Of a DNA stretch of 64,000 bases, positions 4,242 to 55,900 are shown piece after piece; the stretch's first letter is position 1, and each line of letters opens with the position of its first letter. Below the pieces are notes generated by a model. That model had not been told where the DNA came from. It saw only the letters and a list, made by a program, of their open reading frames with translations, and searched no databases. Origin of the DNA: a virus; IMG/VR virus record IMGVR_UViG_3300031800_000001, positions 52,087 through 116,086 of that record. The stretch is one strand, 5' to 3'. The position numbers and the translations under genes are program-made.

Positions 4242-4243
4242 CG

Positions 4244-5296: not shown

Positions 5297-5344
5297 AAAT
5301 AATTAGCAAGAACACGATCTGAACCCTAAAATAGAAAGAAGAAG

Positions 5345-6259
5345 ATGGATCTAGGAAAGAAAAATAAACAAATATTTGTAAAACAAATAAGCACATCAGG
5401 ATGGGAGCAAGGCGGAGCCCATACTGACTATGAGAATGTTTTCAAAATAGGAAATCCGGGTGACGGAATATTTATTTCTTCAGAAGGAGATAGATTTACA
5501 ATAACCAGCATTACTGGCTCAAACATCACCGGCAGTTTCGCAAGCTCGGGGATTTATGTGGGAAACACAGAGAACACTCTTCTTTTCAAATCTGTAATAG
5601 GAGGCAGTGGAATACAAATCACCGGTTATACGGGGGATTTGGTTATAGACTTTACGGGTAAACCTAGCCCAGAAGGACAAAACATAGGTACTGATTCGTC
5701 GGCTACTGGTTTAAGTGGGGTATTTAGGGGGATAGACCAAGCGGCGGATGGAACTAGTATTTTCCAATTCAGAAGCTTAACTGGTGCCGGAAATATTATT
5801 ATCACAGGCGACACGGGTAGATTAATTATAAGCGGAAATAATAGCGCCGGCGCTGGAGGTGGCGGAGGTGGCGGGGGTGGCTATACGGGTCATCATATTT
5901 ATAGTGGAGGAACAAATCCGGAAGATAGCGGAATTGGGATGATTGAGCAGAGCGGATTTACGGGAAGTTTTGCGCAGTCATTTTCGCAAATGATGGTAAC
6001 CGGAGATATAACTGGATTTAGTATGTCCGGAATGACAACTGGTGCGGCAGCCACAATAATGATAACCTGCCCAACCGGAAATAACGTAAGCTTCATGAAC
6101 GAATTCACATTCATAGGAGAAGAACCCGTGGCTTTTCACTCTGGAAAAACAGGCCTACTTGTTTTTACTTGCTTTGGCACTGGAGGCCCCGGGATTTCCC
6201 CACATGAGCACAATACGCTTCCAAGCGGAGTGTTAGCGGCATACGGAGTACAGGATTAA
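5345..6259 (+). CDS. short Gly/Ser/Thr-rich fibre-like protein
   Basis: Two '(L/F)xF(K/R)S(V/L)xGxGxIxITG' fibre repeats and a poly-Gly hinge. The C-terminal GKTGLLVFTCFGTG is homologous to GKMGLLTITAYGTG in 195..4241. Confidence 0.65.
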   Translation: MDLGKKNKQIFVKQISTSGWEQGGAHTDYENVFKIGNPGDGIFISSEGDRFTITSITGSNITGSFASSGIYVGNTENTLLFKSVIGGSGIQITGYTGDLVIDFTGKPSPEGQNIGTDSSATGLSGVFRGIDQAADGTSIFQFRSLTGAGNIIITGDTGRLIISGNNSAGAGGGGGGGGGYTGHHIYSGGTNPEDSGIGMIEQSGFTGSFAQSFSQMMVTGDITGFSMSGMTTGAAATIMITCPTGNNVSFMNEFTFIGEEPVAFHSGKTGLLVFTCFGTGGPGISPHEHNTLPSGVLAAYGVQD

Positions 6260-38902: not shown

Positions 38903-39799
38903 ATGGCAAAAGAATCAATTTATAATCGGGGCTCCATAAAGGAAGGCGGGAACACGGTTGTCTGCCAATCAAGGTTTCATGCGCCAACACACGCAAGGGT
39001 CGGATCTTACATAAGGTTCTATGGCGACAACGAGATGTATCAAATAGCAAAGATGGAGCCATTTTTTTGCATACTTGATTTTGAAACAATAATATCAGAT
39101 AGGGTTTTTGTGAAAGATGAAGACGCCGTGGGATTGGTCGTGGGAGACCTAGTAGAAATTTCATACAAAGAGTACGAGCTCTCAGCCTCTATAAACGTAA
39201 TGAACGGGGGAGAAGGGTACTTAAAAGGTGACACTTTTATCGTAAAAGATGGTGTGCCAGCGGAAGACGTGATAAGTACAGAGAAAAGTCATGCAAAAAT
39301 TGAAGTAATTGAAGTGGATAAAAACGGTTGCGTCATAAAAGTTAAAGTCGTTGATTGCGGGAAATATTGGGAATCTCCGCCGGAGCAAGTTTCATTAGGT
39401 TGGGAACCGAAAGGCGGTTCAGGAAAAGGCGCAGAACTAGCTTTAGTATATAAGACAACAGATTATCGGTCCGCGATGACAAGAGAGGTCACCTCGCTGG
39501 AGGTTGCAGAAGGGGGCTGGAGGGTAATTTTTTCGAATACGCTCCCTCCTAATGTGCTTGGGGGCAAGCTTTCTTGTAAAAAACATAAATTGATTTTAAG
39601 TTCTACTTATGTTTCTATGACAAAATGGTCGGAGCATTTTCAACTTATAGTAGACTTTACGCCTAATTGTGGGGTGCCATTGATGCTGGAGAATAGTTTA
39701 TCTGTGTCGTTGGTATACAATAAGGCTATGATACTTTTAGATAAGAAAATAAAAATGCTTGAAAAAGAAATCGAAAGCCTAAAAGAGAAAGCGGATTAA
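38903..39799 (+). CDS. putative tail/baseplate-associated structural protein
   Basis: Directly after the TMP. Has 'V.NGGEGY..GD...V.VVDCGKY...P...GGSGKGA' beta repeats seen in phage structural proteins and a C-terminal coiled coil. Confidence 0.5.
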   Translation: MAKESIYNRGSIKEGGNTVVCQSRFHAPTHARVGSYIRFYGDNEMYQIAKMEPFFCILDFETIISDRVFVKDEDAVGLVVGDLVEISYKEYELSASINVMNGGEGYLKGDTFIVKDGVPAEDVISTEKSHAKIEVIEVDKNGCVIKVKVVDCGKYWESPPEQVSLGWEPKGGSGKGAELALVYKTTDYRSAMTREVTSLEVAEGGWRVIFSNTLPPNVLGGKLSCKKHKLILSSTYVSMTKWSEHFQLIVDFTPNCGVPLMLENSLSVSLVYNKAMILLDKKIKMLEKEIESLKEKAD

Positions 39800-40755
39800 A
39801 ACTCTTTGGGTAATCTGTCCTCTAGTTCTTCCTGTGTGAAACTAGGGTATTCTTGTATGACTCTGTTGTAAATCTTCGCGGAAACAACGGCCTGTTTACC
39901 GTTAGGAGAAGTTGGTTTGGACACGATAAGCTTGGGGTCTTCTATGTATCCGCATCCGGGTGTTATAACTATAACCTCAGTTAACGAACCGTTTTCTATG
40001 ATACATTGATATTTAGGAGACATAGCTCCAACATATTCACACTGAAACTCTATAGTCGGGGGGGCTGTGTAGCTTGATCCACCGCTCAGAATATCCACGA
40101 TTAAAATATTATGGAATGGCGTAAATCTTAAGGCGTCTTGCCTGCCGTATCTTTGGTTGAAAAGCTCCACGTAAAATCTCTGTTGAGAGGTGGTAAACGC
40201 ATCGAAGGAGTCGACCAAACCAACGGGTGTGCCTTTGTAATAAATTTGACCATTTCTTTGGCTAAATCTAGAATCGTTCTGAGATATACCTGTCCACTCC
40301 CCATTGCTTTTCACAACCTCAAGGGTTTCAGCCCATTTTGTGAGCACAAAGTTCGGCAAGTCTCTTAGGAACTCTTTGTTGGTAACTATTATTTTCTTTT
40401 CTTTTTCGTCATTTTTTTCTAGAGCTCGCATGAATTGAATATCCAAATCCTTAAGCAACTCTCTTCTTTGTGGCATCCAATAATTAAAATTTAATTCTAT
40501 CATTTTAGCAGAATCCCATTTTACGGAATCGGTTGCTCGATCATAGACAAGACACGGCAAATAAAATTCAGGTATGACTTTGTCGCCAGAATCGACAACC
40601 GTGGCGTGAAGGACATCGTCCATCGTTTTTTTATTAGTGTCGAGGGTGTAGTGGAAAAGGAAGTCGATATCTTGCCCAGCCCTTATAATGTGCATCTCAG
40701 ACGGAGGGGCTTGATTTTTATCCTCGGGCTTAAAAAATATAACTAAAATTTGCAT
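39796..40755 (-). CDS. tail fibre assembly chaperone-like protein with a C-terminal GGSxY..P beta module
   Basis: RRELLKDLDIQFMRALE...KEFLRDLP resembles the Tfa-type helical hairpin. It lies downstream of J and carries ILSGGSSYTAPP / ITPGCGYIEDP repeats. Confidence 0.55.
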   Translation of the reverse strand: MQILVIFFKPEDKNQAPPSEMHIIRAGQDIDFLFHYTLDTNKKTMDDVLHATVVDSGDKVIPEFYLPCLVYDRATDSVKWDSAKMIELNFNYWMPQRRELLKDLDIQFMRALEKNDEKEKKIIVTNKEFLRDLPNFVLTKWAETLEVVKSNGEWTGISQNDSRFSQRNGQIYYKGTPVGLVDSFDAFTTSQQRFYVELFNQRYGRQDALRFTPFHNILIVDILSGGSSYTAPPTIEFQCEYVGAMSPKYQCIIENGSLTEVIVITPGCGYIEDPKLIVSKPTSPNGKQAVVSAKIYNRVIQEYPSFTQEELEDRLPKEF

Positions 40756-40757
40756 GA

Positions 40758-43700
40758 TTAACTTAAATTGTAAGTGCTAATACCTTGGTCTTGTCCGTAC
40801 TTAGTAGCTTTTGTCGTGTCCCAAGTATCAAAATTGTAATCAAAAACTGGATCAGAACTTAATTGGCCAAATCCACCAAGGTCTTCTCCTCCCGGTGGGA
40901 AAGGCGAGCCGAGTAATATGCCAACAAAAAGATTTCCTTGTACTGGCCTGCTACCTTGACCGAAGCCTCCAAGCGCAGAGTCTTTGAGGGTGAAGTGAGT
41001 CGTTGTCTTTTGGAGAACGCCATCCTTTGTGAGTATTTGCATATTTGGAGAAAGAGATGAGTCCGACCCATAAACGGGGATTCTGTCAGTTGCTGTCCTC
41101 CATTTGGGCGTCGCAGAGAACCAAACAACTATTTCATACTGATCTGTGGGTTGTGGCGTAGTAAATGTAAATTTGCGAGCTTGTCTGTATGCTTGGATAG
41201 TTGTGAAATTATATTTTGTTTCTGGGCTTTTACCTCCAGTACTCCAAGCTCTTCTTATTTGATAGTCTCCGGCGTAATCCACAAGGGTAATTGTATCGAA
41301 ACCTCCTAGGTGATAGCTAAGGTCTGTCGCGCAATCCCAGTTAACGTTTACGACTGCCCAAGCTCTCCACGACAAAGAGCCAGCCAAGAAGGCGTTTCTC
41401 GCTCCAATCTTGATAACGTTATCGGAAAACTCGTTGCCCCATAATAATTTTTTAACTATATCTTTTTTGGTGGGTCTTTGTTTTCCGGCTTCCGATAAAA
41501 AATGATCAACAAACGCAACGGCCATATAAAGATGCGTAAATGATCCGACCTCTCCTATAGCGCTCTCGGATTGAATGTTCTGGAACGGAGTAGGCACGCT
41601 AAGTGCATAATCAAGACTGGAGGTAAACCCTTGGCCCATAACGAGATACGTCTCGGCGCTCAAATTGAGTCTATACGGACTCGTTAGCTCTGCTGAGTTA
41701 TCGCCCCCAAGGCTTCCATCGTCATCTATGAGGCCATTTTGTAGCATCGTTGGTATGTCGGAGGTGTCAAAGTGACTTCTTGAAATTAAGAAGGCGGCAT
41801 TTGTAACATCAGCTTGTCCTGTAACGCGTCCCGGAAGATCTCTTCTAAGGAGAAAATTAAGAGTTCCATCGGCGTTTAACCATTGGTCGGTACAGTAATT
41901 GACAGTGTTTGGGTGCACGCAGTTTTCTGCAGCTTGACCGGGTCCTTCTGCAACTCGGTGAGTTAATCTTATTCCACTTGCGGGTGTGTTTTGAATATAT
42001 AATATATCATATCCAGCTGGATTTTCAGCATGAGAGGAGTCCTGAGTGAGGACACCGGCGGGAGTATATAAAACTTGACCTCCAGCAGAAGAGTTGCCGT
42101 CTGCATCTATAGCTTCTACAACGACATCCATTGCTCTAAGTGGGGTAACGATTTCCCCTCTTACGGAGGGATAATCGTATCCAGCGGGCAAAGCAATGTC
42201 CATATTATCATTTAAAGAAAGAGAATAATTAAGGTCAGCAGGAGTCTGGCCAGTAATCTCCTTATGAATCAAGGGGTCTGGGAAATCATTTCCGGGACCA
42301 GATGGTTTTCTAAAGGTTATCCTAAATGTATAATCTTGAGGGAGAGCCAGCCCTGCCAGTTCAGTTGGATCACCCGCGAAACCGGCTTGCCAAGCTATGT
42401 TGGCGTTCCCAAGATGATAATAGGGCCAGCCGTCTTTGCTTCCAGCGTCGTTATCAACGTTAGTTAACGCGTAGTTTGCCGCTTCTGATACCTGCTGTGT
42501 AAAGTCTGATAAATCTGTGGCCCCAGCTAAAGAAAGCGCAGATATGGATACGTCCCTAATAAGATTAATATCACTGACGGTTACGCTAGCTGCGCAGTGA
42601 GCGTTCCTACTTTCTGATCTTCCGTGTTTGTTTACCGAATAAATCCTTACATAGTATGTTCCGTTTTGGAATGGAATAAAATATGTGGATGGAGAACTGC
42701 CATCGTCAGGAACAAACCTACTAAAATATACACCGTTTGGGTGGGCTCCCCATATATCTTCATGAAAATCTTCGCTGTTAACGAAATTGGCGTCCCTCTT
42801 TATGTAAATATTATAGCCAGCTAAATTAGTGTCTGGACTTGGCTTATTCCATCGAATCGTAACCTTTTTTGCTGTTAAGCTGCCTAGCTGAGAAATGGTA
42901 AATGGACTAGACGAGAACGTAGGAGCATTTGGGGTGCCTATAGATTCCGTCACGAGGGGCTCGTATTTTTTATCAACAAAATCAAACTTATCGGGGTCAT
43001 GCGCTACGCATTGAACTCCATATCTGAAATTATTTTTTTCTTCTACCCCGATGACTTTCCAGAGCTCTTGATCTCGTTTACCGCCGTGTCCTTGGAGCAA
43101 AGCGCCGGTATATGCCACTGACCAGATGAAACTGTCTGGCGAATCCTCTACGAACCCGGAATAGTTGACCCCATCAGGAGCTAATTGTTCATTCCCGTTT
43201 CTGTCCCAAAGCAGCCCTGTGAATCCTGTTACGTTGTAATCTTTGTCGTTGAGTACGTTTGTTCCGTTGTGGTATAGCCCCGTGAAATGTATTATAGTGT
43301 GGTTTTCAATGGACGTTTTGTCATAGTCAGAAATTGATAATGACCCATCAGCCATTAAGTCATTGGTGGCCCAACCACTTTCTCCCACGAAGTTGGTTAA
43401 TGTTCCGACCCCGGCATCTGCTTTCCTGAAATTAAGATTCTGAACAGCGGATTTTCTGCTATAAAGATTTGCCAAATCGCTTGTGCTAAGGTCAGTTACC
43501 AGAGGGTCACCATAAGCTGGAGGGGTTACGATGCTAAAATTTAATTGAGCCTTATCGCCGAGCTCAGGTATTGAATAATGAGCGCCACCATCAAGCCAAC
43601 CAGATATCGAGCTATCAAGAACTGCTCTCCCCGTCCAGTTCGGTTGGCCGTCCATGTTATGGCCAGAAGAAATCTGAAAATTAAGAATTCTCCCCCCCCT

Positions 43701-45785
43701 TCTCCTTGTAGCTACGTCTTGATACGTCCCCCTGTTTGCGTCTGACGTAGCAACAATATCCCCCGCCTGAAGATAAGCCCCTTCTATTCCGGCTGTAAAG
43801 TTGCAGGTTTCTGTTTCGAGCCTTTCGGTGGCTAAGGTCCATTGTCCCCATCTTTGTGCTTGATTTTTTGAGGTCGTACCAAAGGCGGTTATATCTTTTA
43901 CTCTTATTCCATATTTTTTTATAGAATCAATATCCTCAACATATTCCATGCTGGGTTTGTACCTGTTCGCTTCGTCGTTGTATCTCACTAGGCAAACTGA
44001 ATGTCTAGCTTTCTTGGCGGAACTGCTGTACATGAAGTCTCCTTCCATGACATTTGCATTGGTGAACAAGTATGTCGGCTCCTTCGGCGCGTCATGCGTT
44101 GCCTGAAGCTTACCCGCGCTATAAAAAGTAAGCCCCCTAAATACACTGGCAACATTATTGATTACGGAAAAAGCATCTTCTTGGTTGGAGATATAAATAT
44201 TTGCTGTAAACCTAGGCTCGCCAAAATCTTCTTCGGGTCTGTCATCATAGTCTTGCGCTGTGAAGCCATTGGGGACAAGCTCGTCGCAATATTGTGCGAT
44301 TTTGAACATAGACCATTTATCGACCCGCTCTTCTCCGATGTATTTTCCTAAACCGTATCTTTTATTTGTTATGAGGTCGTAGTAAATCCAAGCGGGATTG
44401 TCTGTCCATTCTTTTTTCAGTGTTCCGTCGGCATGCCGTTTCCAGTCTCCATCCCAAACCTCGGTTGTGGTGTCAAGTAGGGGATCTCCTTCATTGTCTG
44501 GTCGGACCCCAACGGCGCTACCACCTCGAATTCCCCCATATGTGCGCATAAGAGGGTTGTAGTTGTTTGGCACCTTGACCCGCATCCCTCTCACCCGATG
44601 GGTTCTTTTTGGAATTGCGTTGAATGTGTCCGCCCTGAATTTGTGTCTTATAAATGCAGTGGTTGGATAGCAGAATTTTTCTTCATATATTTCAGTGAGA
44701 GAATCGACAAAGGTTTGATTCCTTAAAGACCCCCTAAAAGAATCAAAGGTTTCCCTGTATATGGCAATACGCCAGCCTATGAAATCAGGATCTTCCGTTA
44801 CGCTAGAGTACCCGTAAGTGGATCCAAAAGAAGAAGGATCGGGAGTTATTTTTGTTGTTTTTGCATACCCATCTGTAATCTTACCACGAATTGTTACCGC
44901 TACGACATTAGTAATAGGTTCTTGCACTACTTCGCCTGCGCTATTCCTAGGAAAGAAGTCGGTATTTTTTGTATCGTCAGAATAATACGGCTTGTGGTCT
45001 ATGCGATAGGTGACGGCGGTTTGCTTTACGTCACCTTTTCCGGTTTTAGCGCCGTCCTCTGTAGACCCGCTCATTAGGGTCTCTGATAGCATTGATACTC
45101 GCACAACGACTATGAAGCCAGTACATCTTTTATTTGTTATGTTGTAAATCTTTGGAAGGCCCTCGCTTCTACCGAGCTTGTCCTCGCCCTCTTTAAGAAT
45201 CATGGAGTCAGCAGAGTAATTTGAATCTTTATATTTAAGCTCCGGTCCGCGTAGCCTTTCCCCCAAGGCTCTTTGGATCTGCAAGGCGTCATCAGAATTA
45301 GAATCTAATACTAAATTTTCACCCGCAGGCTCGCCTTTGGAATGAGTCACATCAACATTTTGAAAATTCCTATAGCCAGCTTTTGACATGACCGCTACGC
45401 CGTTATAGTATACAGATCTAGCCCATCCAGATTGAATCTGACCGGCAGTACCAGATACGTATGGTCTAAATTTTACCAACTCGTAACCGGTTTCTCCTAC
45501 GTAACCAGACTTGTGAAAATAGCCCGAAGAGAGTCCATCAATGGGGCCTTCACTTAAGGCATCTAAAACTTCTACAGTAGAAAGAGATACTGCACCCGGG
45601 GGTTTACCCTGAGAATCGTCAGCCGCTGGACGAGGAAAATCGGGTGAATCCACTCCTTCCGCCTCGACAACAATATCTCTAGGGGTTGGTGGAGTTCCCC
45701 CTCCACCCTTAAAGAATTGGATTTCTCCACTTGGCCCAAGCGTGATAGGGTATCTCGTCTTTTTAATTTTGGGCTTTCTTTTCAT
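40758..45785 (-). CDS. central tail fibre / tip attachment protein (lambda gpJ-like), 1675 aa
   Basis: DALSEGPIDGL, YPTTAF, GMRVKVPNNYNP, WTDNPAWIYYDL..KRYGLG, AQYCDELV, EPRFTAN and FTNANV..GDFMYSSS, plus an FN3-like domain (VTIRWNKP...YNIY...YYVRIYSVN). Confidence 0.92.
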   Translation of the reverse strand: MKRKPKIKKTRYPITLGPSGEIQFFKGGGGTPPTPRDIVVEAEGVDSPDFPRPAADDSQGKPPGAVSLSTVEVLDALSEGPIDGLSSGYFHKSGYVGETGYELVKFRPYVSGTAGQIQSGWARSVYYNGVAVMSKAGYRNFQNVDVTHSKGEPAGENLVLDSNSDDALQIQRALGERLRGPELKYKDSNYSADSMILKEGEDKLGRSEGLPKIYNITNKRCTGFIVVVRVSMLSETLMSGSTEDGAKTGKGDVKQTAVTYRIDHKPYYSDDTKNTDFFPRNSAGEVVQEPITNVVAVTIRGKITDGYAKTTKITPDPSSFGSTYGYSSVTEDPDFIGWRIAIYRETFDSFRGSLRNQTFVDSLTEIYEEKFCYPTTAFIRHKFRADTFNAIPKRTHRVRGMRVKVPNNYNPLMRTYGGIRGGSAVGVRPDNEGDPLLDTTTEVWDGDWKRHADGTLKKEWTDNPAWIYYDLITNKRYGLGKYIGEERVDKWSMFKIAQYCDELVPNGFTAQDYDDRPEEDFGEPRFTANIYISNQEDAFSVINNVASVFRGLTFYSAGKLQATHDAPKEPTYLFTNANVMEGDFMYSSSAKKARHSVCLVRYNDEANRYKPSMEYVEDIDSIKKYGIRVKDITAFGTTSKNQAQRWGQWTLATERLETETCNFTAGIEGAYLQAGDIVATSDANRGTYQDVATRRRGGRILNFQISSGHNMDGQPNWTGRAVLDSSISGWLDGGAHYSIPELGDKAQLNFSIVTPPAYGDPLVTDLSTSDLANLYSRKSAVQNLNFRKADAGVGTLTNFVGESGWATNDLMADGSLSISDYDKTSIENHTIIHFTGLYHNGTNVLNDKDYNVTGFTGLLWDRNGNEQLAPDGVNYSGFVEDSPDSFIWSVAYTGALLQGHGGKRDQELWKVIGVEEKNNFRYGVQCVAHDPDKFDFVDKKYEPLVTESIGTPNAPTFSSSPFTISQLGSLTAKKVTIRWNKPSPDTNLAGYNIYIKRDANFVNSEDFHEDIWGAHPNGVYFSRFVPDDGSSPSTYFIPFQNGTYYVRIYSVNKHGRSESRNAHCAASVTVSDINLIRDVSISALSLAGATDLSDFTQQVSEAANYALTNVDNDAGSKDGWPYYHLGNANIAWQAGFAGDPTELAGLALPQDYTFRITFRKPSGPGNDFPDPLIHKEITGQTPADLNYSLSLNDNMDIALPAGYDYPSVRGEIVTPLRAMDVVVEAIDADGNSSAGGQVLYTPAGVLTQDSSHAENPAGYDILYIQNTPASGIRLTHRVAEGPGQAAENCVHPNTVNYCTDQWLNADGTLNFLLRRDLPGRVTGQADVTNAAFLISRSHFDTSDIPTMLQNGLIDDDGSLGGDNSAELTSPYRLNLSAETYLVMGQGFTSSLDYALSVPTPFQNIQSESAIGEVGSFTHLYMAVAFVDHFLSEAGKQRPTKKDIVKKLLWGNEFSDNVIKIGARNAFLAGSLSWRAWAVVNVNWDCATDLSYHLGGFDTITLVDYAGDYQIRRAWSTGGKSPETKYNFTTIQAYRQARKFTFTTPQPTDQYEIVVWFSATPKWRTATDRIPVYGSDSSLSPNMQILTKDGVLQKTTTHFTLKDSALGGFGQGSRPVQGNLFVGILLGSPFPPGGEDLGGFGQLSSDPVFDYNFDTWDTTKATKYGQDQGISTYNLS

Positions 45786-45789
45786 TTGG

Positions 45790-46482
45790 TTAGTTCGTTA
45801 TAGAGCTCGACGCTGCATCCACGTCGTATACATCATAATAAGCGGCAAGCGTCTGACTGCCGCATATAAGTTCACCGTAGCAAATGGGTACGGGGCCGCC
45901 CTCTGTCGAAACGTTTACTGGGCCATTAAATAAGTAGGAAGCTGACATGGCCCCCTCTAAGTTCTTTAGCTCCTCCATCTCAGGGGGCTCCATAAGCAAT
46001 GCCGCTATTCCTGCGGCCAAAAGACCAATTCCAGCCATTATTATCATCGCTCCAATATCGGGACTGATGTAAACGGCTACTAGAATGCCTATGATAATAA
46101 TTATAATAGCAAAAATTATAGTAAAAGTTTCATCCGCGCCCTCAACTACGGGAACTATATCTATTTTTTTCAGCTTGGGGTTATTAATCTTAAGCTCGGA
46201 ATTCCTTATGGCTTCCAGTTGTTTCTTGGTTTTATCTTTGTTGTCGTATATATGGTCAAACCGAATATCTGAGGATGATTTCCATGGCTCATTATTGATT
46301 AATATTTTAAATTTTTGATTTTTCTTCTGCTCTCTGCCGAGTTGTCTGAATAGCTTACCATCTGATAGTTTATTAATTGCATGCATCGCTTCCGAGACGC
46401 TTTGTACGTGCAAGTTCCAAGTCTTCATTCCTACTTTTTTCCCCAGCTTTCCGTGGAGTTTAATTTCAACGGGCTTTTTCAT
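45790..46482 (-). CDS. tail assembly protein I (lambda gpI-like, ubiquitin-like N-domain)
   Basis: IKLHGKLGKK...SVSEAMHAI...IDIVPVVEGA, a hydrophobic hairpin, then SYLFNGPVN...GGPVPICYGE..GS. Confidence 0.9.
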   Translation of the reverse strand: MKKPVEIKLHGKLGKKVGMKTWNLHVQSVSEAMHAINKLSDGKLFRQLGREQKKNQKFKILINNEPWKSSSDIRFDHIYDNKDKTKKQLEAIRNSELKINNPKLKKIDIVPVVEGADETFTIIFAIIIIIIGILVAVYISPDIGAMIIMAGIGLLAAGIAALLMEPPEMEELKNLEGAMSASYLFNGPVNVSTEGGPVPICYGELICGSQTLAAYYDVYDVDAASSSITN

Positions 46483-47299
46483 GTCTTAAAATATTTGTTA
46501 TTGCTAGTTTATGATTAATGTTAAGTTTTTCTATTTTTGAGATCTGTTTCCATGGGTGATGCAATATCTTGCCATCGCCAAGATAGATCATGGAGTGTAT
46601 TGCTTGGGTTATGTTGTATTTTTTGTTCCATTTTTCGTTCCAAGTTTTAGTTAAAATTACATCGTGTTTTTTGAGAGTTTTAACTTCATGAAATCCGTTG
46701 TGTTTGAGAAAATTTAAGTATACGGGGGTTGTTTTATATTTTTCAATCATTTTTCTCAAGTACGCCCCTTCCTCGTTGTCTTTTACGGATTTAAACAGCA
46801 TGGACATGGTGCATGATTCACCACGAGCTTCGCCAATCACCGAGCCAATAAATTCTTTTTGGCCGGTAAGTTCTATGTTAAAGAATTTTTTATAGTAATC
46901 TTCTACCAAATCTACACATGTGGTAATGCCCGAAGTCCATTCTCTCCCCACGAAAGGAGCAACAAAACCATCTGGTTGATGAGAATCAAAACAATCATCC
47001 TCGACACAGTAAAGAATGATGTTTGTTTCTAGTCTTTCGCTTTCGTGTTTATCAGCCCAAGATAGCTTTTTTCCATCAAAATGAGAATGGTAAATAGCAA
47101 AAAGATCCGAATCTCCAATTTTGTTCTTTAAGTCTTCTTCGGAGATAACACAATGATAGGTAGGATTTTGCGATACATTTTTACATTTTTTGGTAATAAA
47201 GTGACCGTCATTTTCCAAAACAACGCCGCAGCATTCGTTTGGGGATTCTTCCAAGGAATGTTTCTTGATGCTTTTTTTAATTGTTTCTGATATTTTCAA
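46466..47299 (-). CDS. tail assembly protein K paralogue 2 (JAB/MPN + NlpC/P60)
   Basis: PNECCG and YHSH....LSWAD (JAMM motif); TCVDLVEDYY and IHSMIYLGDGKILHH (NlpC/P60). Confidence 0.85.
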   Translation of the reverse strand: MKISETIKKSIKKHSLEESPNECCGVVLENDGHFITKKCKNVSQNPTYHCVISEEDLKNKIGDSDLFAIYHSHFDGKKLSWADKHESERLETNIILYCVEDDCFDSHQPDGFVAPFVGREWTSGITTCVDLVEDYYKKFFNIELTGQKEFIGSVIGEARGESCTMSMLFKSVKDNEEGAYLRKMIEKYKTTPVYLNFLKHNGFHEVKTLKKHDVILTKTWNEKWNKKYNITQAIHSMIYLGDGKILHHPWKQISKIEKLNINHKLAITNILRHEKAR

Positions 47300-48030
47300 A
47301 ACTGACTTTCGTGCCTTAGTGCGTGTGTGGTTCTTTTTTTAAATTCTTTATTGTACTCTTCGATTCTAGAGTAGCAACTTATTTGGTGGTGTAAAATTAA
47401 ATCATTGCCAACATAAATAGCACCATGACTAGGGTTCTTCTTTCCGTAGCTCTTCATTAGGATAACGTCGTGTTTTTTGAGTGCGGATATGTCGGTAACC
47501 TCTCCCTTCAGGACGACTTCGAACCCTTCGTTAGGATACTCATCAACATACCAATTTGGGTTTGATGTAATATACTCAAAGTTCCTTTCTTTTTCTGGTA
47601 AATCGACGTCTAATTCTTTTTTGTAGTAATCGCGTATTATGGTATAGCAATCATTTTTACCTAGGCAAAAATCTCTCCCTATGTAAAAAGATTCGCATCC
47701 CTTCGGCTCGTATTCTTTAAACTCTTGACTCTTAAGGCTATACATTATGAATTTTATTTCGTGGTGTTCGCTTTGTATTTTGTCGTAATCAGAAAATTCA
47801 CTGCTGTTGATGTGCGAGTGGTAAAAGGAAATTATTTCACCAAAGCACGAGGCTTTAAGGTAGTCGCTTGGGTCAATTGAAAACATCATACGTTTGTTTT
47901 CGGCCATATTTCTACATCTTAGGGCTTTAAGCTGAAGGGTGTCTTCCTCTTGATATAAAATTCCACAGCACTCGTTGGGCGACTCTTCTAGAGCGTGGTC
48001 TTTTATGTGTTTTTTGATGTAGTCTTTCAT
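47296..48030 (-). CDS. tail assembly protein K paralogue 1 (JAB/MPN + NlpC/P60); true start probably 48030, not 48120
   Basis: MKDYIKKHIKDHALEESPNECCG, YHSH....FSDYD, DCYTIIRDYY and SHGAIYVG..LILHH. The ATG at 48030 is 2 nt after the L stop and aligns with the paralogue's N-terminus. Confidence 0.88.
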   Translation of the reverse strand: MKDYIKKHIKDHALEESPNECCGILYQEEDTLQLKALRCRNMAENKRMMFSIDPSDYLKASCFGEIISFYHSHINSSEFSDYDKIQSEHHEIKFIMYSLKSQEFKEYEPKGCESFYIGRDFCLGKNDCYTIIRDYYKKELDVDLPEKERNFEYITSNPNWYVDEYPNEGFEVVLKGEVTDISALKKHDVILMKSYGKKNPSHGAIYVGNDLILHHQISCYSRIEEYNKEFKKRTTHALRHESQF

Positions 48031-48032
48031 CG

Positions 48033-49325
48033 TTACTCTGATCCATGTAGTTTTTCGACGGCTGGGAAGCCTCCAAATGGTAAGCAACCGGCATGCGTAT
48101 TTGTGCCGCAGCCACCACATGGGTTACTCATTGAGTAAACGCCGCAAGTTGTTGAGGTACCAATCATCGAATCCGTGGATGTGCCAAAAATACGTACATC
48201 TCCGTGCCTTTTGTACTCATCCGACCATCTTAATTTGCACCCCTTTATTGTCTTGGAGCACTTGTCTTCCAGCCAATAATTGTTATTGGGTGGAATTGTT
48301 GATAAAGTTCCTCCTTGCGCGGTTGAAGCTGCGGGTACGGCGTCTTTTGCTATAAAATAATATTTTATATCATTTTTAGTTATGTAAATATTTTCTCCTA
48401 TAGAATAGGCCCTTTCGGGATCATACGCTGTTGCCGCTTGTTGTGGGCGGTAGTCTGTACCGAGTTTGTCTATGAAAAGCTCGTCATTTTCGTTTGCTAA
48501 AGGGGGAGCTTTACAGGGAAATTTAAGTTCGCTGAAGCTATCCGTGCCAAAGGCCGATTCGAGTTGGTCGTTAGTCATGTTTTGCCCAACTTGCTCGTAT
48601 TCGTAAATGCACCCTTCTCCTCTGTACTGAAATTGACAATACCTTGAAATAACCAGCCTCATTGGAAGCTTTAGATTTTCAAAATCAATAAAGGAACCCA
48701 ACTCAAATTCTAATCCATTTTTGCTCTCTACGCTTTTTCTGTTTATGAAAAATACTTCCCTAGGGAATTCGGCTAGTGGATCTGGTGCAAACCCTTCGGG
48801 TATTAAAGTGTCGTCACCCAAGGTAACTCTTCCTCCTCCGGGTTGGATATCATAAAAGTTTTTCAGATCTAGATACTTAGCGAAAGTCCTTACTCTTGTT
48901 ACTTTAGCTCCAATTAGATCATCTAGCTTTCTCACCATTGTCTTAAAGTCTTTAAACATCGATTGCTGGTCTTCTTTTTCATTCGACATCATACTCATTC
49001 TGGGGGTAGGCGTAGAGCTCCTCGTGCTGCTGTCGAACCCCTCCACACTTATAGGTAAGGGGTGGTATTCTTCACCCTTCCAGTATATTTTTTGTTTAGT
49101 AAGTTTTAGGTTATTATGGAATCTAAAAACGGCTTCTCCGGCTAAAGTAGTTTCAAGATAGGGCATGCTTTCATCTATCAGCAAATCTTCTAAATCTATT
49201 TCGTATAGAGTCACAACAGCAGACGGAGCCACCTTACCCATCTGGGTGACAATTTTTTCCCCGGACTGCTTCGATCTATTTATTATGACCTTCGGGAAAT
49301 CACTTAATTTTTTATCACTTGACAT
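48033..49325 (-). CDS. minor tail protein L (lambda gpL-like, Fe-S binding)
   Basis: VTLYEIDL, IYWKGEEY.PLPI..EGF, LIGAKVTRVRTFAKYLD..NF, CQFQYRGEGC, DKCSKTIKGCKLR and LPFGGFPA. Confidence 0.92.
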   Translation of the reverse strand: MSSDKKLSDFPKVIINRSKQSGEKIVTQMGKVAPSAVVTLYEIDLEDLLIDESMPYLETTLAGEAVFRFHNNLKLTKQKIYWKGEEYHPLPISVEGFDSSTRSSTPTPRMSMMSNEKEDQQSMFKDFKTMVRKLDDLIGAKVTRVRTFAKYLDLKNFYDIQPGGGRVTLGDDTLIPEGFAPDPLAEFPREVFFINRKSVESKNGLEFELGSFIDFENLKLPMRLVISRYCQFQYRGEGCIYEYEQVGQNMTNDQLESAFGTDSFSELKFPCKAPPLANENDELFIDKLGTDYRPQQAATAYDPERAYSIGENIYITKNDIKYYFIAKDAVPAASTAQGGTLSTIPPNNNYWLEDKCSKTIKGCKLRWSDEYKRHGDVRIFGTSTDSMIGTSTTCGVYSMSNPCGGCGTNTHAGCLPFGGFPAVEKLHGSE

Positions 49326-49334
49326 ATTGCGATG

Positions 49335-49880
49335 TTAGTTTGTTACTTCTTCGAAGGTTGCTCTTATGGTATAATTTTCATAGAAATTAAAAGTTACGCC
49401 CCAATCTCTGGCAACATACAATTTATCAATATTATACGGAGCGGGAAGCATGCATAGGAAGGATTCCTGAGCCTTTCTCGAATGAAAAAAATGAGTAATT
49501 GCTTTGGCCTCAGCCGCGTCTCTGGTCTCAAAACTAATCGTGGCTCTCAGCAGAATGCTTTCTATACCATCTATGACTCTTTGTTCGTAGCCGTCTCCAT
49601 AGGAATAACGGATAACTCTCGGTTTATTTTCTACGGTAAAATTATAGGAAGGTTTCCACCAGAAATGAGGCTTGTTGGTCGAGGTTTTGATGTTGTCAAA
49701 TTTCACCCCCGCCCACTCGTGGTTTGAAAGCGACGGCGCACTAAGAACGCCGGGAACAGAGGCGTACCAATAGTATTTACGCGTTTTACCACTTACCGTA
49801 AGATCGTGCCAGACTATGTCGTTTTTCTTATATTCTGTTCCGGCATTAAACTTCTCTATATTGTAAATGTTAGTACCCAT
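49335..49880 (-). CDS. minor tail protein M / distal tail protein (lambda gpM-like) with an N-terminal extension
   Basis: FWWKP...PRV....YGDGYEQR..DGI...EAKAITHFF......SF....P...ATFEEV. Confidence 0.9.
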   Translation of the reverse strand: MGTNIYNIEKFNAGTEYKKNDIVWHDLTVSGKTRKYYWYASVPGVLSAPSLSNHEWAGVKFDNIKTSTNKPHFWWKPSYNFTVENKPRVIRYSYGDGYEQRVIDGIESILLRATISFETRDAAEAKAITHFFHSRKAQESFLCMLPAPYNIDKLYVARDWGVTFNFYENYTIRATFEEVTN

Positions 49881-49946
49881 ACACCATACCTTTTTCCTGA
49901 TTTATTTACACGTAGTTGCCAAATATATGCAGTGTAATAGTATTCG
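49881..49946. promoter_or_regulatory. divergent promoter region with back-to-back GTGTAA motifs
   Basis: Minus strand GTGTAAATA at 49911-49903 points to M; plus strand GTGTAATA at 49932-49939 points to the 49947 gene. Confidence 0.65.
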
Positions 49947-50900
49947 ATGGCATTCAAGATAATCAATAGAGAAAAGCAGGAGGTTTTCATAGGATCTGGG
50001 CAGGTACATGGGGTGCAGTCCATATCATATAATTGGGCAATACCAGAAGCGCCGATTGAATTCATAGGCCAGTCAAACTCCCTTATAGTCCCGCAGGGGC
50101 CACAAATAGGGGATTTTTCAATCAATATGCTAGTTGTGGATACTGACCCACTTGTAAAATGCATAAGTAGCGGAGCTTTCAATGGGTTTATAACTGACGA
50201 CAGAAGAGATCCCACTAGATTTTACAGTTTTTATTCGGGGTATTTAACTAGATATACCCTATCATGCGGTGTTGACTCATTACCCCAAGTAAACGCGACC
50301 TTTAGGGTAGTGGGGGATATGGGGAAAATTCCATCTGGATCGTTACCGCCAGAACCAGCGGCAGAATTAAGATACATAACTGGAACAACCCCAGCGCAAA
50401 CCGCACCTACAGGATTCGCGGATAATCCGGGTGATGGGGGATATAGAATTGGTGCGCCGACAAGCGTTGAGATAACAATGGACGATTTTGAAGCCAATAT
50501 TGTAAATAGTTTTACATTAGGGCTTGAGATACCGAGGAGAGACTATTATAAAATAGGAAGAAGGAGTCCGTTTTCCGTAGAAATAGACTATCCCGTGGCG
50601 GCAACAGCGGATTTCACAATTGAAGTCAATGGTGCTGACATAGGGTATTCTGGCAGTACATTTAGAGGGTATCCATGCAAGGCGAAACTTAAGAATTTTG
50701 ACGTTAAAATAAAAGATTACCAAACTTATCAAGTAATAACGCAATTTAATTTCACGGGGGCCACTTTAATAGGCGAAAATTACCAAGTAGACGTCAATAA
50801 TAACTTAAAAATACAAGCCAGATATAAGGTATACATTGAGAACCTTCTGTCCGAAACCGGAAACCTCAATACTCCACAATTAGTTACAATTACTAACTAA
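49947..50900 (+). CDS. tail tube-like paralogue 1
   Basis: Aligns by eye with 17005..18312: VQSISYNWAIP / SGYLTRYTLSCGVDSLPQV / SFTLGLEIPRRDYYKIG...VEIDYPV. Confidence 0.65.
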   Translation: MAFKIINREKQEVFIGSGQVHGVQSISYNWAIPEAPIEFIGQSNSLIVPQGPQIGDFSINMLVVDTDPLVKCISSGAFNGFITDDRRDPTRFYSFYSGYLTRYTLSCGVDSLPQVNATFRVVGDMGKIPSGSLPPEPAAELRYITGTTPAQTAPTGFADNPGDGGYRIGAPTSVEITMDDFEANIVNSFTLGLEIPRRDYYKIGRRSPFSVEIDYPVAATADFTIEVNGADIGYSGSTFRGYPCKAKLKNFDVKIKDYQTYQVITQFNFTGATLIGENYQVDVNNNLKIQARYKVYIENLLSETGNLNTPQLVTITN

Positions 50901-50906
50901 TTTCCA

Positions 50907-50914
50907 GTGTAATT
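50907..50914 (+). promoter_or_regulatory. GTGTAATT motif upstream of 50942
   Basis: Same motif, followed by ACAAGG as seen upstream of the TMP. Confidence 0.5.
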
Positions 50915-50941
50915 GATAAAGAGGTACAAGGTTTTTGGGCA

Positions 50942-51859
50942 ATGATTTTTTTCAACAATTGTGACGTGGTGGTAAACGGTACGGGTGTAATGGCCGAGCA
51001 GGTATCATTGTCTACCGCTAACTCAATTGTTGCTGTCCGAGCTATGGGCAAAAACCTCGCAGAAGGCTCTGATCCAGACGGACAATATTCAGCCGCTGTG
51101 CGCTTTTCTTACTACTTGGAGGTGGAAAAAGACCCGGTTTACGCAAACGTTTTAGATTATTTGGGCTTGGTTCACAACACGGTTGACCCAAACTATCACG
51201 ATATTCCGCCAAATGTAATAGGGGTAGCTGGAGTAACTGGAGTCTACTACTTGGATAGCTACAGCGTAAGCGTGTCATCAAACGACATAATCAAAGCTAA
51301 CGCTTCATACGTGGGGTTTGTGCCGCCCACGGGTACAGTAATCAAGCGATCAGGTGTAGTCGACAAGGGGTACGCGGAAAGCTTTAGCGGATTAGCTCAC
51401 TCTTGGACAACGTCCCTTCTCGCTAGTGATGGGACAATATTGGCTCCAGTTTATGATTTTTCCTATAATTTCAGAGGGGTAGTAAATCCAATTTACGTAT
51501 TAGGGCAAAAATACCCGAAGCAAGTACAACTCCTAACCGCGGAAGAAACAGTGAATGTAGTTAAAGACACGTCTTCCATAAATATAAGCGGCCAAGGCCC
51601 CGACTCTCATCCAATTACTTTTTACGGAGAAAGTGGATGGGCTTTATTTAGTGGGCAGCTAGAGGACGGATCATATTTCAGCGAATATGATCCCGAGTCC
51701 CCACCTAGGGTAAGAATTGAACCATTAAGTGGTCTATGCGATACTTCTTTGCATTTTATGGAATTTGATTTTTCAGGAATGAAAATAGAAACTTCAGATA
51801 TATCTATAGACACAAACGATTTTGCAAAAACTTCGTACACACTTAGGAGGTACCATTAA
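50942..51859 (+). CDS. tail tube-like paralogue 2
   Basis: Same two-half pattern: YLDSYSVSVSSNDIIKANASY; DFSYNFRGVVNPIYVLGQKYP. Confidence 0.55.
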   Translation: MIFFNNCDVVVNGTGVMAEQVSLSTANSIVAVRAMGKNLAEGSDPDGQYSAAVRFSYYLEVEKDPVYANVLDYLGLVHNTVDPNYHDIPPNVIGVAGVTGVYYLDSYSVSVSSNDIIKANASYVGFVPPTGTVIKRSGVVDKGYAESFSGLAHSWTTSLLASDGTILAPVYDFSYNFRGVVNPIYVLGQKYPKQVQLLTAEETVNVVKDTSSINISGQGPDSHPITFYGESGWALFSGQLEDGSYFSEYDPESPPRVRIEPLSGLCDTSLHFMEFDFSGMKIETSDISIDTNDFAKTSYTLRRYH

Positions 51860-52968
51860 TGTATTATACATATAAAAATTGTACCGTACTTTTAAACAAT
51901 CGTTCTTTCGTTGCTGCTAATCTTTCGTTTGACATAAATGCCAATTTAGAAGCACGGTATTTTGCAAGTAAAAAATACTCTCATTTTTACCAAGCGTCGG
52001 AACCGATTCGTGGGACCATGTCTTTTACGTACTTTCTAACCGGGCAGGATTATTTTCATGATTTAATATATAAAGAAGACGTAGGAATAGAAGGAAACTT
52101 TGGGCAGATGAGCTTTCCTAGTGGACATCTTACAAGCTACAGGATAAGTGCGACGCCCAACCGTATGGCGCGGGCAGACGTAGAGATAGAGTTTTTTGAT
52201 TTTGAAGGCCAACTTGGGTCAGGCTCGTTTACGCCGAACACAGAAAAACCGAGCCAAGACAAAAAAATGCTAAACTTCTTGGACGCGACGATTAACGGTA
52301 CGGGTCTAACAGACGCTAACTCATTGGTGACAGACGCTTCATTCTCTTATTCAATGGAGGTAAGGCCCGTCTATAATTTAGTAACGGGGACAGGGCTCTA
52401 TAACATAAAGCCAGATAGCATCTCTTTCGGTCCAAAAAAATTAGAAACATCCGTGACCATCGATAACTTAAGTGGCGCTATGAGAATGCAGGGAGAAAAT
52501 ACGGTACTCGGAATAGAATTAAGAGACAGGGAAACGCGATCAAGACAGGTGTACTACGAGGCTAGGGGATTTACAAATGTAAAAAGTATACAAGCAGATA
52601 ATCAAAGTTTCGCAAAAAACTCAATACGGGTAACTCAAGAAGCTCCGAGCTTTTTAGCTCAAATAACGGGGCTCGTTGAGGACCACCCAGACAACGGAGG
52701 AGAAGGGTGGGGACCCACGGGTGGAGCGCCGGGGGACACGATAGACATAAGTGGAATAAATTTTTTAAGCTATCCAGATGTATGGATTGGTAATTTTGAG
52801 TTGTTTGAGTGCCAATATGTCCACGACAATTTAATAAGATTTGTAGTCCCAGAGGAAACGGCTGGAGGAGACGGGTACATATATTTAAAAAATGGAGATT
52901 ACGCCAACGCATCAACTATGGGATTTACGTCTTTATCTTCTAGTATATTAATAACCAGAATAAGGTAA
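51859..52968 (+). CDS. tail tube-like paralogue 3 with a C-terminal IPT/TIG domain
   Basis: SGHLTSYRISATPNRMARADVEI and ASFSYSMEVRPVY. The C-terminal GPTGGAPGDTIDISGINF...VWIG...DNLIRFVVP is IPT/TIG-like. Confidence 0.6.
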   Translation: MYYTYKNCTVLLNNRSFVAANLSFDINANLEARYFASKKYSHFYQASEPIRGTMSFTYFLTGQDYFHDLIYKEDVGIEGNFGQMSFPSGHLTSYRISATPNRMARADVEIEFFDFEGQLGSGSFTPNTEKPSQDKKMLNFLDATINGTGLTDANSLVTDASFSYSMEVRPVYNLVTGTGLYNIKPDSISFGPKKLETSVTIDNLSGAMRMQGENTVLGIELRDRETRSRQVYYEARGFTNVKSIQADNQSFAKNSIRVTQEAPSFLAQITGLVEDHPDNGGEGWGPTGGAPGDTIDISGINFLSYPDVWIGNFELFECQYVHDNLIRFVVPEETAGGDGYIYLKNGDYANASTMGFTSLSSSILITRIR

Positions 52969-52970
52969 GC

Positions 52971-55900
52971 ATGTCATCAGGAATAATAGGCCAGACAGTT
53001 AGGATCGAAGGGCAGGGGTTTGTCCAAATCGACAGCGTCTCTTTCCCCTTCGAGCCTAATACGGATGCCATTGGCGGGATAGATTATACTTTTGCTAATT
53101 TCTCTTGGGTCAATGAAGAACTATTAATTGCCACAATTCCAAATGGCGCTCAATGGGGGAATCCAAGGGTGGGTTCTTCGCTTAGGAAGCAAACGGGAAC
53201 CGCAGGCGAATTTTTTGTCCCTATGCCCCAAATTTTAGGGGTAACCACGGACAAACCAGAGCCCGGGTCGCAAATGAGCGTGAGTGGTCTGGGGCTATCG
53301 GGGGTTACTGGGGCATTTTTTGGCACAGGGCAATTGCCGGCGACAACCGTGCACAGCGGAATGGTCGATATAAATTTTCTACCGCTCACCGTTCCTTATG
53401 GACACATAGATGGGCCTTTGAAAATAGTGGGGCAAAGTGGGCTGAATGCCACATACCCCACGATGAAAACAAACGTCATTATTACGGGGGTTCAGCCCTC
53501 TTCTGGAGAAAGGCATAGACCCGGAGGGGGAGAACAGCCATTTGATGATATCGTAATTTCTGGAGAAAACTTTGCAACAGGGGCTCTTGTAAGGGCGTCA
53601 ACAGACCCCTCTAGTCAAGATTATAACCGTTGGTTGGTTGATTTCAATGGGGCAGAAACCGGATTTGGGCTAATAGGGACAACAGGATTAAGTGGTAAGA
53701 TACCTTCCAATGCGAACTCGGGCCTTCTGTCAATAAGAAATTCACTTGGGGGCTCTCACGCTAATGGAATTGATTTTTATGTGATTCCCGGACCACCTGT
53801 TCTATCGGCAATAGGTCCAGTCACTGGTAAACCCGCGGGTAGGCACGGAGGAAATCGGGATCATTCCATATTAATTAGTGAGGGTGACTACGTAACGCTG
53901 TCTGGAGAGTTTTTTGGCAACACTACAGGCTTATATGTCTATCCAATAGGACAAAGAGATGGGGATCATAAAGAAAACTTAATTAACCCACAGGTAATAG
54001 CATACGGAGCGAATAAAGACAATACCCGAATAGACTTTTCCCTGCCAACAGGAACGGGAAGATACAGAGACTGTGACGTAGTAATAGAAACGACAAGGGG
54101 GTCTGCAACCGGAGAAAGCTCTTTATACATAAAGTACCCTCCGTTCATAAAAGGATTTGAGCCAAAAAGCGAATTCAAAGGAAACAAGGTAGACATAACT
54201 GGTAGCGGATTTTTTGATGATTCCGAAACTAATGTATATTTTAGTGGGTTGGCTAGTCATGGAGGCTTCTCTGGAAATATAGGAGCAAGCATATCAGGAA
54301 TAGAGGGCACCCCTGATGCTGGTCTTCAGGTGATGAGCGTGTACGTTCCCGGCTTGTCTGAAGATTCTAACTTCTCCATAGTTGTGGATAACAGTGTTGG
54401 TAAATCCACAAGCCCAGAGGGGCAATATTTTGGGTTCTTTGCTGAACCAGAAATTTCTGGATTTTCTCCCACTTCTGGAACACATGGAACCACGGTAATA
54501 ATAAGCGGAACAAGCTTAGTAAACTTAGTCTCAATTTACCATGGTAATACACCAGTAACGACCTACTCTGTTCTGGGGTCAAGGGGAACTGGAATAAGTT
54601 TTCAAATACCCTCAAAGCACGCTTACTTAACTAATGATTATTTATATCGCGAACTCCAAGTCCCAATAAGGATATCAGCAGTAGGCGGATCAACAACCAC
54701 AGCGGAAAGGTTTCAAACAATACCGGATAGCATATTTTACAGTGGTCATTATCCAGACTTGGTTGCAAGAAACGATTTCCTAAAAATATCTGGTGCGAAT
54801 TTAGAATTAGTTACAGGAGTAAGGTTTACAGGAAAAAACGACACCCAGACAACAGTAGAAGTAGTCCCAGTAGGTTACTATTCCTTACTTGAGCCGACGG
54901 GATTTGGTTTTCCAAAGACAGGATTAAACATAAGAGTGCCGATAGACGCAGACGACGGCAAGCCTATGCTTATGGGCGAATTTACAAACTCGCAAAGCAT
55001 TCTGCCAATAGAGGTTTTTGAAATAGTAACACTGGACCTTGTTAAGCCCGGAACAGGCATATATGGGGATTCGATAATACTAAGCGGGACAGATACCCAT
55101 CAGTCCAAATATTGGTTTCAGGGGTATTCAAGTGGACACATGGATATGTCGAATATCTCTAGTGGGGTGGGGCAATTTACATCAGCACAACAAGGCCCCT
55201 CATTTTTAGTGACCCAAGGGGGCGGAATAGGGGGAGGAATTTTTGACCCAACTGTCGAGGTCAGACTAAACAAGCACCCAACGTGGGATTACATAAAACC
55301 ATTAAACGGAAATGATATATATAAGTATGGGGCAGATGGCGAAGAGTATGTAGAGCTTCAAATTCCAGCTTGTCTTCTTGAAGACACAAGATTGTTTACG
55401 TCAAGGCGAGATAAGGCGGATGTTGACCTTACTATAACTGACTATCAAGACCTGTCAACAACTATCTCTGCGTATCCAACGATATCTGGCATTTCAGCAA
55501 CAACAATTAGAGTAGGGCAAACATTATACATCTCAGGAATAAACGCCGAAAAAACCTTCATTAACGCTATAGGAATTAGTGGAACAGGACTAGCTCACCC
55601 CGGAGAAGAAGGCGGAGGAAATAGGGAAATAGAATTTGTTAGTAAATACAGCACAAGACAAGACTTGCTTTTCCAAGACGGAACCGAGGCTACTTGGTTT
55701 AATCTGGGGGATTATTTTATTCCGAATAGTCCATTTCAGTTGCTAGACAGCTCCGATCCATTAGGACACATATGGAACGCAGAGATAAGAAGGCACATAC
55801 ACACAAGCGGATTAAGAGACGAGGGCGTAGCTAAAACCGGCCTATACAACATACCAATAACCATATCAGACAATTTCGTAGGAACAGGGTTTTTATTCTT

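Follow-up and report, generated by a model that had tools for sequence, protein, structure and literature searches.

Why would a phage keep two complete copies of an enzyme of which phage lambda has only one? This question is raised by a stretch of 64,000 nucleotides of viral DNA, here called the window, which spans positions 52,087 to 116,086 of the IMG/VR virus record IMGVR_UViG_3300031800_000001 and is the 3' part of a 116-kb contig estimated to be 71% complete. The source is an uncultured large marine-type phage with a small clade of relatives. On its minus strand, gene order and family matches define a tightly packed, lambda-type tail-tip operon, M-L-K1-K2-I-J, in which K1 and K2 are paralogues of the tail-tip assembly protein K and combine a JAB/JAMM domain with an NlpC/P60 domain. 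We find that this tandem is a real, old and selected feature of a small uncultured clade. Our tentative explanation is that K1 and K2 are tail-tip assembly proteases which are inherited as a pair and have undergone subfunctionalisation; the only evident substrate of their JAMM domains is gpI with its ubiquitin-like protein (Ubl) domain.

Distribution, age and selection of the K1-K2 tandem

The loci were collected by searching viral contigs with K2 and an alignment of the K2 clade, which yielded 80 loci, and a K profile was run over all their open reading frames (ORFs). The position of K between L and I in the order M-L-K-I-J is repeated in about 80 related loci. K1-K2 tandems are found in the clade of the window (L004, L005/L008 and L006/L016) and in L009-L017, and in all the pair is carried by at least 11 different contigs of related viruses. 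Outside these tandems, L018-L020 and L052, every other locus has a single K. In L052, two full K genes (4039-5468) form a separate tandem that looks like an independent duplication. In L018-L020, a JAB-only ORF of 130-137 residues with an intact JAMM motif lies directly upstream of a full K; this ORF is closest to the K1-type JABs (positions L018:1981-3119, L019:6938-8076 and L020:6920-8061).

Beyond these loci such tandems are rare. Of 1.84 billion representative proteins, 1094 matched K2, 11 of them at E <= 1e-30 and about five over their full length and with a K2-like length. Cultured phages contain no protein of the K2 clade, their best match being 28% identical. Their records hold 1740 K-like places in 1733 matching records, which leaves room for two K genes in at most 7 of the 1733. 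Among the records listed for three protein queries (5-7 excess places in 600-1730 records) there was no named cultured phage with two K genes. Our literature searches turned up no account of tandem K genes.

Are both copies under constraint? No paralogue in any tandem locus has lost a catalytic position. Substitutions there are limited to exchanges of Ser and Thr and to Gln or Asn at the final NlpC site, all of them seen in single K proteins as well. All catalytic residues and a K2-specific insert, described below, are kept in 12 proteins of the K2 clade that are 41-92% identical to the K2 of the window. Pairwise ratios of nonsynonymous to synonymous substitution rates (dN/dS) are 0.07-0.11 for K1 and 0.22-0.29 for K2, and both are under purifying selection. 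With K2 orthologues spanning 31-92% identity at dN/dS values of 0.07-0.29 for the two copies, this long separate maintenance makes it unlikely that K1 and K2 are redundant.

In a maximum-likelihood tree the K2 proteins form one clade, with a support of 96 in the Shimodaira-Hasegawa-like approximate likelihood ratio test (SH-aLRT), and the branching of K1 mirrors that of K2. In this free tree, the product of a quick search, the K1 proteins fall in with the one K of the single-K sisters (SH-aLRT 97). A single clade made up of K1 and K2 is not rejected by an approximately unbiased (AU) test (p 0.25). Tree and test together point to one old duplication, and both a loss of K2 in the sisters and a duplication at the base of the K1-K2 clade fit.

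The two genes also move together. When the window (K1-K2 at 46466-48030) is compared with L004 (3167-4746), M, L, I and J are identical at about 0.60-0.75 of their DNA positions, K1 at 0.79-0.89 and K2 at 0.88-0.99. Since identity breaks at the gene borders, the K1-K2 cassette has recombined as a unit, and the K genes travel together. Their junction is a 4-nucleotide overlap, ATGA or TTGA, in all of the main clade and in L052. In the window the TTG start of K2 overlaps the TGA stop of K1 as TTGA, the ATG of gpI sits 17 nucleotides within K2, and the start of K1, taken as the ATG at 48030, lies 2 nucleotides past the stop of L.

Domains, catalytic residues and modelled structure of K1 and K2

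K1 matches Prok-JAB (PF14464) with 35.4 bits, NlpC_P60 (PF00877) with 38.3 bits and phrog_30 with 231 bits. The corresponding scores of K2 are 26.0, 17.7 and 138 bits, which places its NlpC_P60 match below the Pfam cut-off (25 bits for PF14464 and 23 bits for PF00877). The two proteins are 29% identical in a BLASTP alignment; over the aligned columns of each domain, identity is 35% and 34%.

The catalytic set of K1 consists of E20, H71-S72-H73, S80, D83, C128, H202 and H214-H215. In an alignment of orthologues and lambda K, the HSH, Ser and Asp of the JAMM motif and the Cys, His and His-His of NlpC are invariant (7/7 sequences). The JAMM Glu is present in all six K1 and K2 sequences of this alignment; in lambda K it lies upstream of the annotated start. 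In the K2 clade, the NlpC residues C128, H235 and H247-H248 are invariant in all 12 proteins. Judged by these residues, both K1 and K2 appear catalytically competent. An earlier note on the window, made from its letters, had described two diverged K paralogues that keep the JAMM residues (E, HSH, S..D) and the NlpC Cys/His/His, together with an insert of about 30 residues in K2. The catalytic residues proved intact in both copies and in all orthologues, and the insert was found to measure 33-40 residues, with an additional one of 8.

Within the NlpC/P60 domain, the longer insert follows the Cys helix and precedes the His strand, and the shorter one comes just before the His. The longer one is absent from K1 and lambda K and kept in all members of the K2 clade. 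An AlphaFold2 model of K2, with a predicted local distance difference test (pLDDT) score of 91.9, shows it as four helices (147-157, 164-170, 176-187 and 193-200). As K1 and K2 have diverged equally in both domains, this insert is the sole hint that the NlpC/P60 half has changed.

The lambda record itself holds an oddity in this region. In NC_001416 (L007), the first 50 or so codons of a K-type JAB lie at 4129-4290 in a frame other than that of annotated K. They begin right after L and include the conserved Glu-Ser-Cys-Gly segment. The annotated lambda K (199 residues, starting MSPEDW) is without the catalytic Glu region unless there is a frame change or the sequence is corrected.

A sequence search of the PDB with K2 gave chance-level matches only. 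By structure, residues 1-114 of the K2 model match PfJAMM1 (5ld9) with Z 15.0 and a root-mean-square deviation of 2.5 over 111 aligned residues, while residues 115-277 match NlpC/P60 autolysins (7cfl, Z 10.5; 8wt3, Z 10.0). Cap3 (9ild, Z 10.6) and a bacterial complex of a Ubl and its deubiquitinase (8tyy_B, Z 9.8) are further matches of the JAMM domain.

Could K2 then act against a host defence? Hor et al. showed that Bil tags the central tail fibre with a Ubl, and they speculated that deubiquitinase domains of phage tail assembly proteins may be anti-Bil (10.1101/2023.09.04.556158); the idea is thus not new, and applies to any K. The earlier note had suggested that the second K removes Ubls attached by the host. 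In such a role K2 would strip Bil-type conjugates from the fibre while K1 does the assembly. The alignments to 8tyy_B and Cap3 and the somewhat faster evolution of K2 would go along with this role. However, these matches are weaker than that to PfJAMM1 and reflect a shared fold, nothing more. K2 is a full-length K homologue nested in the K family, with NlpC/P60 intact, and not a captured host deubiquitinase. It is translationally coupled within a structural operon, and PADLOC returned no match for K1, K2 or I at E <= 0.1. With nothing about the idea specific to K2, we regard such a counter-defence as very unlikely.

Candidate substrates: gpI, the tail fibre J and the tape measure

What might two such enzymes cut? 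The protein encoded directly downstream is the obvious place to start. The beta-grasp of gpI ends in IVPVVEGA (residues 109-116), and a helical hydrophobic hairpin (118-163) follows, which bears out the earlier description of a Ubl ending in VPVVEGA ahead of a hydrophobic hairpin. In the AlphaFold2 model (pLDDT 69.5 overall and about 88 for residues 1-60), the last beta-grasp strand covers residues 106-112 and the helices 118-138 and 141-163. For residues 2-116, the top nine structural matches are all MoaD/ThiS-type Ubls with modest and consistent Z scores of 7.0-8.5, among them SAMP1 (4hro, Z 8.5), a MoaD-related protein (1v8c, Z 8.0), CysO, MoaD and Urm1. The alignments reach or nearly reach the C-terminus of the Ubl chain, as far as residue 81 of 81 in MoaD (1fm0_D) and 84 of 87 in SAMP1 (4hro). 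Pfam gave no match for gpI at E <= 0.01.

Over 62 gpI sequences, P111 is invariant and G115 is conserved in at least 90%. The junction motif [IV]xPx[IV]xG[AS], with a short linker and then a hydrophobic segment behind it, occurs in single-K and K1-K2 phages alike, reading IVPVVEGA-DE in the window and IVPRVAGA-KSGG in lambda. Iterated Ubl and C-terminal profiles find one gpI per locus, always directly after K. They detect no second gpI-type Ubl among the ORFs of at least 50 residues in the window and about 85 loci, a search that other Ubl families could escape.

That the JAB domain of K releases a Ubl at its last Gly was predicted by Iyer, Burroughs and Aravind in 2006 (PMC1779556). According to a meeting report, lambda gpK cuts the Ubl off gpI to order tip assembly (PMC12908700). 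In lambda structures gpI is resolved only from residue 101 or 135 onward, and the hairpin and plug region of the window gpI is homologous to the part of lambda gpI that is resolved in the tail-tip lumen. The gpI model, with its beta-grasp and conserved junction, agrees with the prediction, the structures and the meeting report. By virion mass spectrometry, gpK is not found in lambda virions (PMC10721106).

How might K1 and K2 divide this work? We favour the following account, to which we would give slightly less than even confidence. One old duplication of gene K would have produced K1 and K2, neither of which is probably a virion component, by analogy with lambda gpK. K1 would be the canonical copy, whose JAMM domain most likely waits until gpI is docked in the L-I-J tip complex and then cuts off its Ubl cap after the VEG-A junction, as reported for lambda. 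K2 would be translated in coupling to K1 and would have kept both active sites, while its NlpC/P60 half may have been remodelled by the four-helix insert beside the catalytic Cys and His. Most likely K2 took over part of an ancestral double job, either in a heteromer with K1 or in sequential action on the same assembling tip, which would be subfunctionalisation rather than an unrelated new activity. The account builds on what the sequences show, namely the domain content, the intact catalytic residues, the purifying selection on both genes, the overlapping gene junction, the joint recombination of K1 and K2 and the single Ubl of each locus.

Several points weigh against this account. Syntenic sister phages get by with one K, and the divergence of K1 from K2 is even across the domains (35%, 34%) instead of being concentrated in one of them. 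The substrates, the division of labour and any K1-K2 contact are inferred. K1 and K2 are both MPN+, unlike classical JAMM heterodimers, which pair an active with an inactive subunit.

Another possibility is that K1 and K2 do equivalent work, with gpI as their sole target, and that phages with very large tails keep both for the sake of dosage or robustness. The single detectable Ubl substrate, the junction motif that is alike in K1-K2 and single-K phages and the intact JAMM sites of both copies would all suit this. Against it, redundant copies rarely persist down to 29% identity with all four catalytic motifs in a clade this deep, the insert specific to K2 is conserved, and the single-K sisters have equally giant tape measure proteins (TMPs) and an identical operon layout. 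We hold such equivalence to be rather unlikely.

The central tail fibre J was the second candidate, as the earlier note had taken its diglycine (GG) sites for possible targets of K2. J of the window has 15 GG dipeptides against 14.3 expected, and a GG excess was rejected. Many single-K phages, lambda among them, have a run of glycines near the N-terminus of J with a TPxE-type segment behind it; as the run is thus shared across the family, it was also dismissed as a trait specific to K2.

What does accompany the tandem is an extra N-terminus of about 45 residues in all distinct J proteins of K1-K2 phages (n=8). It consists of a variable basic leader of 20-30 residues ending in hydrophobic-x-hydrophobic-x-GGG and a conserved Pro-rich PRDPxEEPxG segment. 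In the window the leader is 30 residues long and ends, as the earlier note had read, in FFKGGGG. The J proteins of syntenic single-K sisters lack the leader, the G-run and the Pro-rich segment, and in distant single-K phages such as lambda the G-run lies within about 10 residues of the J start. The leader, seen in a single lineage, is the one surviving link to the K duplication and is weakly consistent with a role of J as substrate.

From this link follows another possible role for K2, namely to remove the clade-specific J leader at the G-run and so free a Gly-rich N-terminus as in other J proteins. The presence of leader and Pro-rich segment in 8 of 8 distinct K1-K2 J proteins, set against single-K syntenic sisters with neither leader nor G-run, argues for it, and a Hint/intein-like domain in the J G-run of L041 and L051 offers a precedent for processing at the same spot. 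On the other hand, the co-occurrence amounts to one lineage, with L018-L020 a second possible case, and the J of the separate L052 tandem has no long leader. A leader of 30 residues is also too short for the Ubl fold that JAMM enzymes grip. We consider leader removal by K2 unlikely.

The Hint/intein-like domain deserves a description of its own. It sits inside the J G-run of two single-K phages (L041:8301-9017 and L051:8300-9100), begins with Cys (C..DTLV), ends in ...RVHN and matches PT-HINT with 41.7 bits and Hint with 30.2 bits. Its terminal Asn is followed by Gly or Ala instead of the usual nucleophile, and the domain may therefore cleave rather than splice.

Finally, the earlier note had pointed to eight xxxGG motifs in the giant TMP and raised the question whether a GG-rich TMP goes along with the duplication of K. 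The TMP of the window has 93 GG dipeptides where about 65 are expected. The motif [QED][QEDS]GG occurs six times in it, a chance-level count given a mean of 2.6 and a maximum of 10 in shuffles, and once in the TMP of another K1-K2 phage. Ratios of observed to expected GG are 1.40 and 1.50 in TMPs of 6436 and 3734 residues from K1-K2 phages and 1.46 in one of 3621 residues from a single-K relative. A tie between GG-rich TMPs and the K duplication was rejected, because the single-K relative is equally enriched.

Processing of the TMP by K2 at its GG motifs would draw on the overall GG excess and on a loose [QE][QEDS]GGx[VI] that recurs in the C-terminal third of the window TMP. The same excess in a single-K relative, the lone [QED][QEDS]GG in the other K1-K2 phage, a count in the window that lies within the range of shuffles, and the lack of any known Ubl fold upstream of TMP GG sites make this hardly credible.

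Giant TMPs are common to K1-K2 phages and their single-K sisters. A tape measure sets about 1.5 A of tail length per residue. TMPs of 3621-6436 residues would correspond to tails of about 0.5-0.9 micrometres, unless a large share of the TMP serves as cargo instead of as ruler.

All these observations touch on the proposal of the earlier note that the second K gained a new substrate. Its premise of two apparently competent copies, which have long been kept apart, stands, and its diglycine argument does not. That K2 is a dedicated enzyme for a substrate other than gpI, be it through removal of the J leader or through stripping host Ubl tags from J, seems doubtful to us; subfunctionalisation within tail-tip assembly remains our preferred reading.

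The locus and its relation to known systems

The features of the window discussed here are collected in Table 1.

Table 1. Position of the tail-tip operon, its domains and the tape measure gene in the window
Feature	Coordinates	Strand	Evidence
gpM-like distal tail protein, 181 aa, first gene of the tip operon	49335..49880	-	PF05939 61.6 bits; phrog_14
gpL-like hub protein, 430 aa	48033..49325	-	PF05100 111.9 bits; phrog_18
K1, canonical tail-tip assembly protein K, JAB/JAMM + NlpC/P60, 244 aa	47296..48030	-	PF14464, PF00877, phrog_30
K2, diverged K paralogue, JAB/JAMM + NlpC/P60 with insert, 277 aa	46466..47299	-	PF14464, phrog_30, AlphaFold2 model
K2-specific insert, about residues 145-200, between NlpC/P60 Cys helix and His strand	46700..46867	-	alignment, model
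gpI, whole gene	45790..46482	-	phrog_32 118 bits
gpI N-terminal ubiquitin-like beta-grasp, residues 1-116, ends IVPVVEGA	46135..46482	-	phrog_32, AlphaFold2 model matches
gpI hydrophobic helical hairpin (residues 118-163) and C-terminal plug domain	45790..46134	-	model; lambda gpI homology
J N-terminal basic leader, 30 aa, ends FFKGGGG	45696..45785	-	sequence
Rest of central tail fibre J (J total 1675 aa)	40758..45695	-	phrog_31 421 bits; PF13550 91.7 bits
Giant tape measure protein TMP, 6037 aa	20761..38874	+	PF10145 114 bits at residues 126-312; LysM at residues 3320-3363

With the TMP gene on the plus strand and the tip operon on the minus strand, the operon is inverted relative to the TMP. 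M-L-K-(K)-I-J is divergent from a conserved block of 3-4 genes (window 39796-52968; also in L011, L013, L021, L022, L044 and L062), which encodes proteins of about 304, 280 and 360 residues and then a large Gly-rich protein. This divergent block and the inverted tip operon are common to K1-K2 phages and single-K sisters. A second giant open frame on the plus strand (52971-63998) runs off the window; it exceeds 3676 residues, has 14% Gly and is without a Pfam match.

L and M of the window (430 and 181 residues) are far larger than those of lambda (232 and 109 residues). Their extra parts contain aromatic-rich stretches, for example Y..ND.V...YYW.A, with a similar one in L, and these stretches may resemble small carbohydrate-binding modules.

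What can be learned from such a locus? The JAMM job of gpK, the cutting of the gpI Ubl cap, is only now emerging. A clade with two complete, diverged K enzymes is a natural experiment for splitting the JAMM and NlpC/P60 functions of gpK, and a concrete place for testing the published idea that tail deubiquitinase domains counter Ubl-based defence. If K2 merely shares the gpI job, the tandem is an ordinary duplication within a known module. Should K2 act on something other than gpI, nature would here have separated the part of a phage JAMM protease in assembly from a second, new role.

The closest known counterpart is lambda gpK (TAPK, annotated as 'C40 family peptidase', phrog_30), which shares the two-domain architecture, the catalytic residues and the position between L and I. 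It differs in that lambda has one K, while the window has two in tandem and K2 carries the four-helix insert and the loop of 8 residues. Likewise, lambda gpI (TAPI) has the MoaD/ThiS-like beta-grasp with a conserved Gly end, the hydrophobic hairpin and the plug domain, and is encoded directly 3' of K; the Ubl of the window is longer (about 116 residues, with an inserted helix), and its linker is the acidic DE in place of KSGG.

Among the JAMM/MPN deubiquitinases that act on prokaryotic Ubls, such as PfJAMM1 with SAMP2 (5LDA), the Bil deubiquitinase (8TYY) and Cap3, residues 1-114 of K2 find the same fold and metal-site motif. In contrast to these enzymes, K2 is fused to an NlpC/P60 domain and lies in a virion-assembly operon with no E1 or E2 genes nearby. 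A pair of paralogous MPN proteins also recalls the MPN+/MPN- heterodimers Rpn11-Rpn8, CSN5-CSN6 and BRCC36-Abraxas, which are among the structural matches of K2. Here the likeness ends with the active sites: K1 and K2 have a full JAMM motif at all loci, and neither is therefore an MPN- scaffold.

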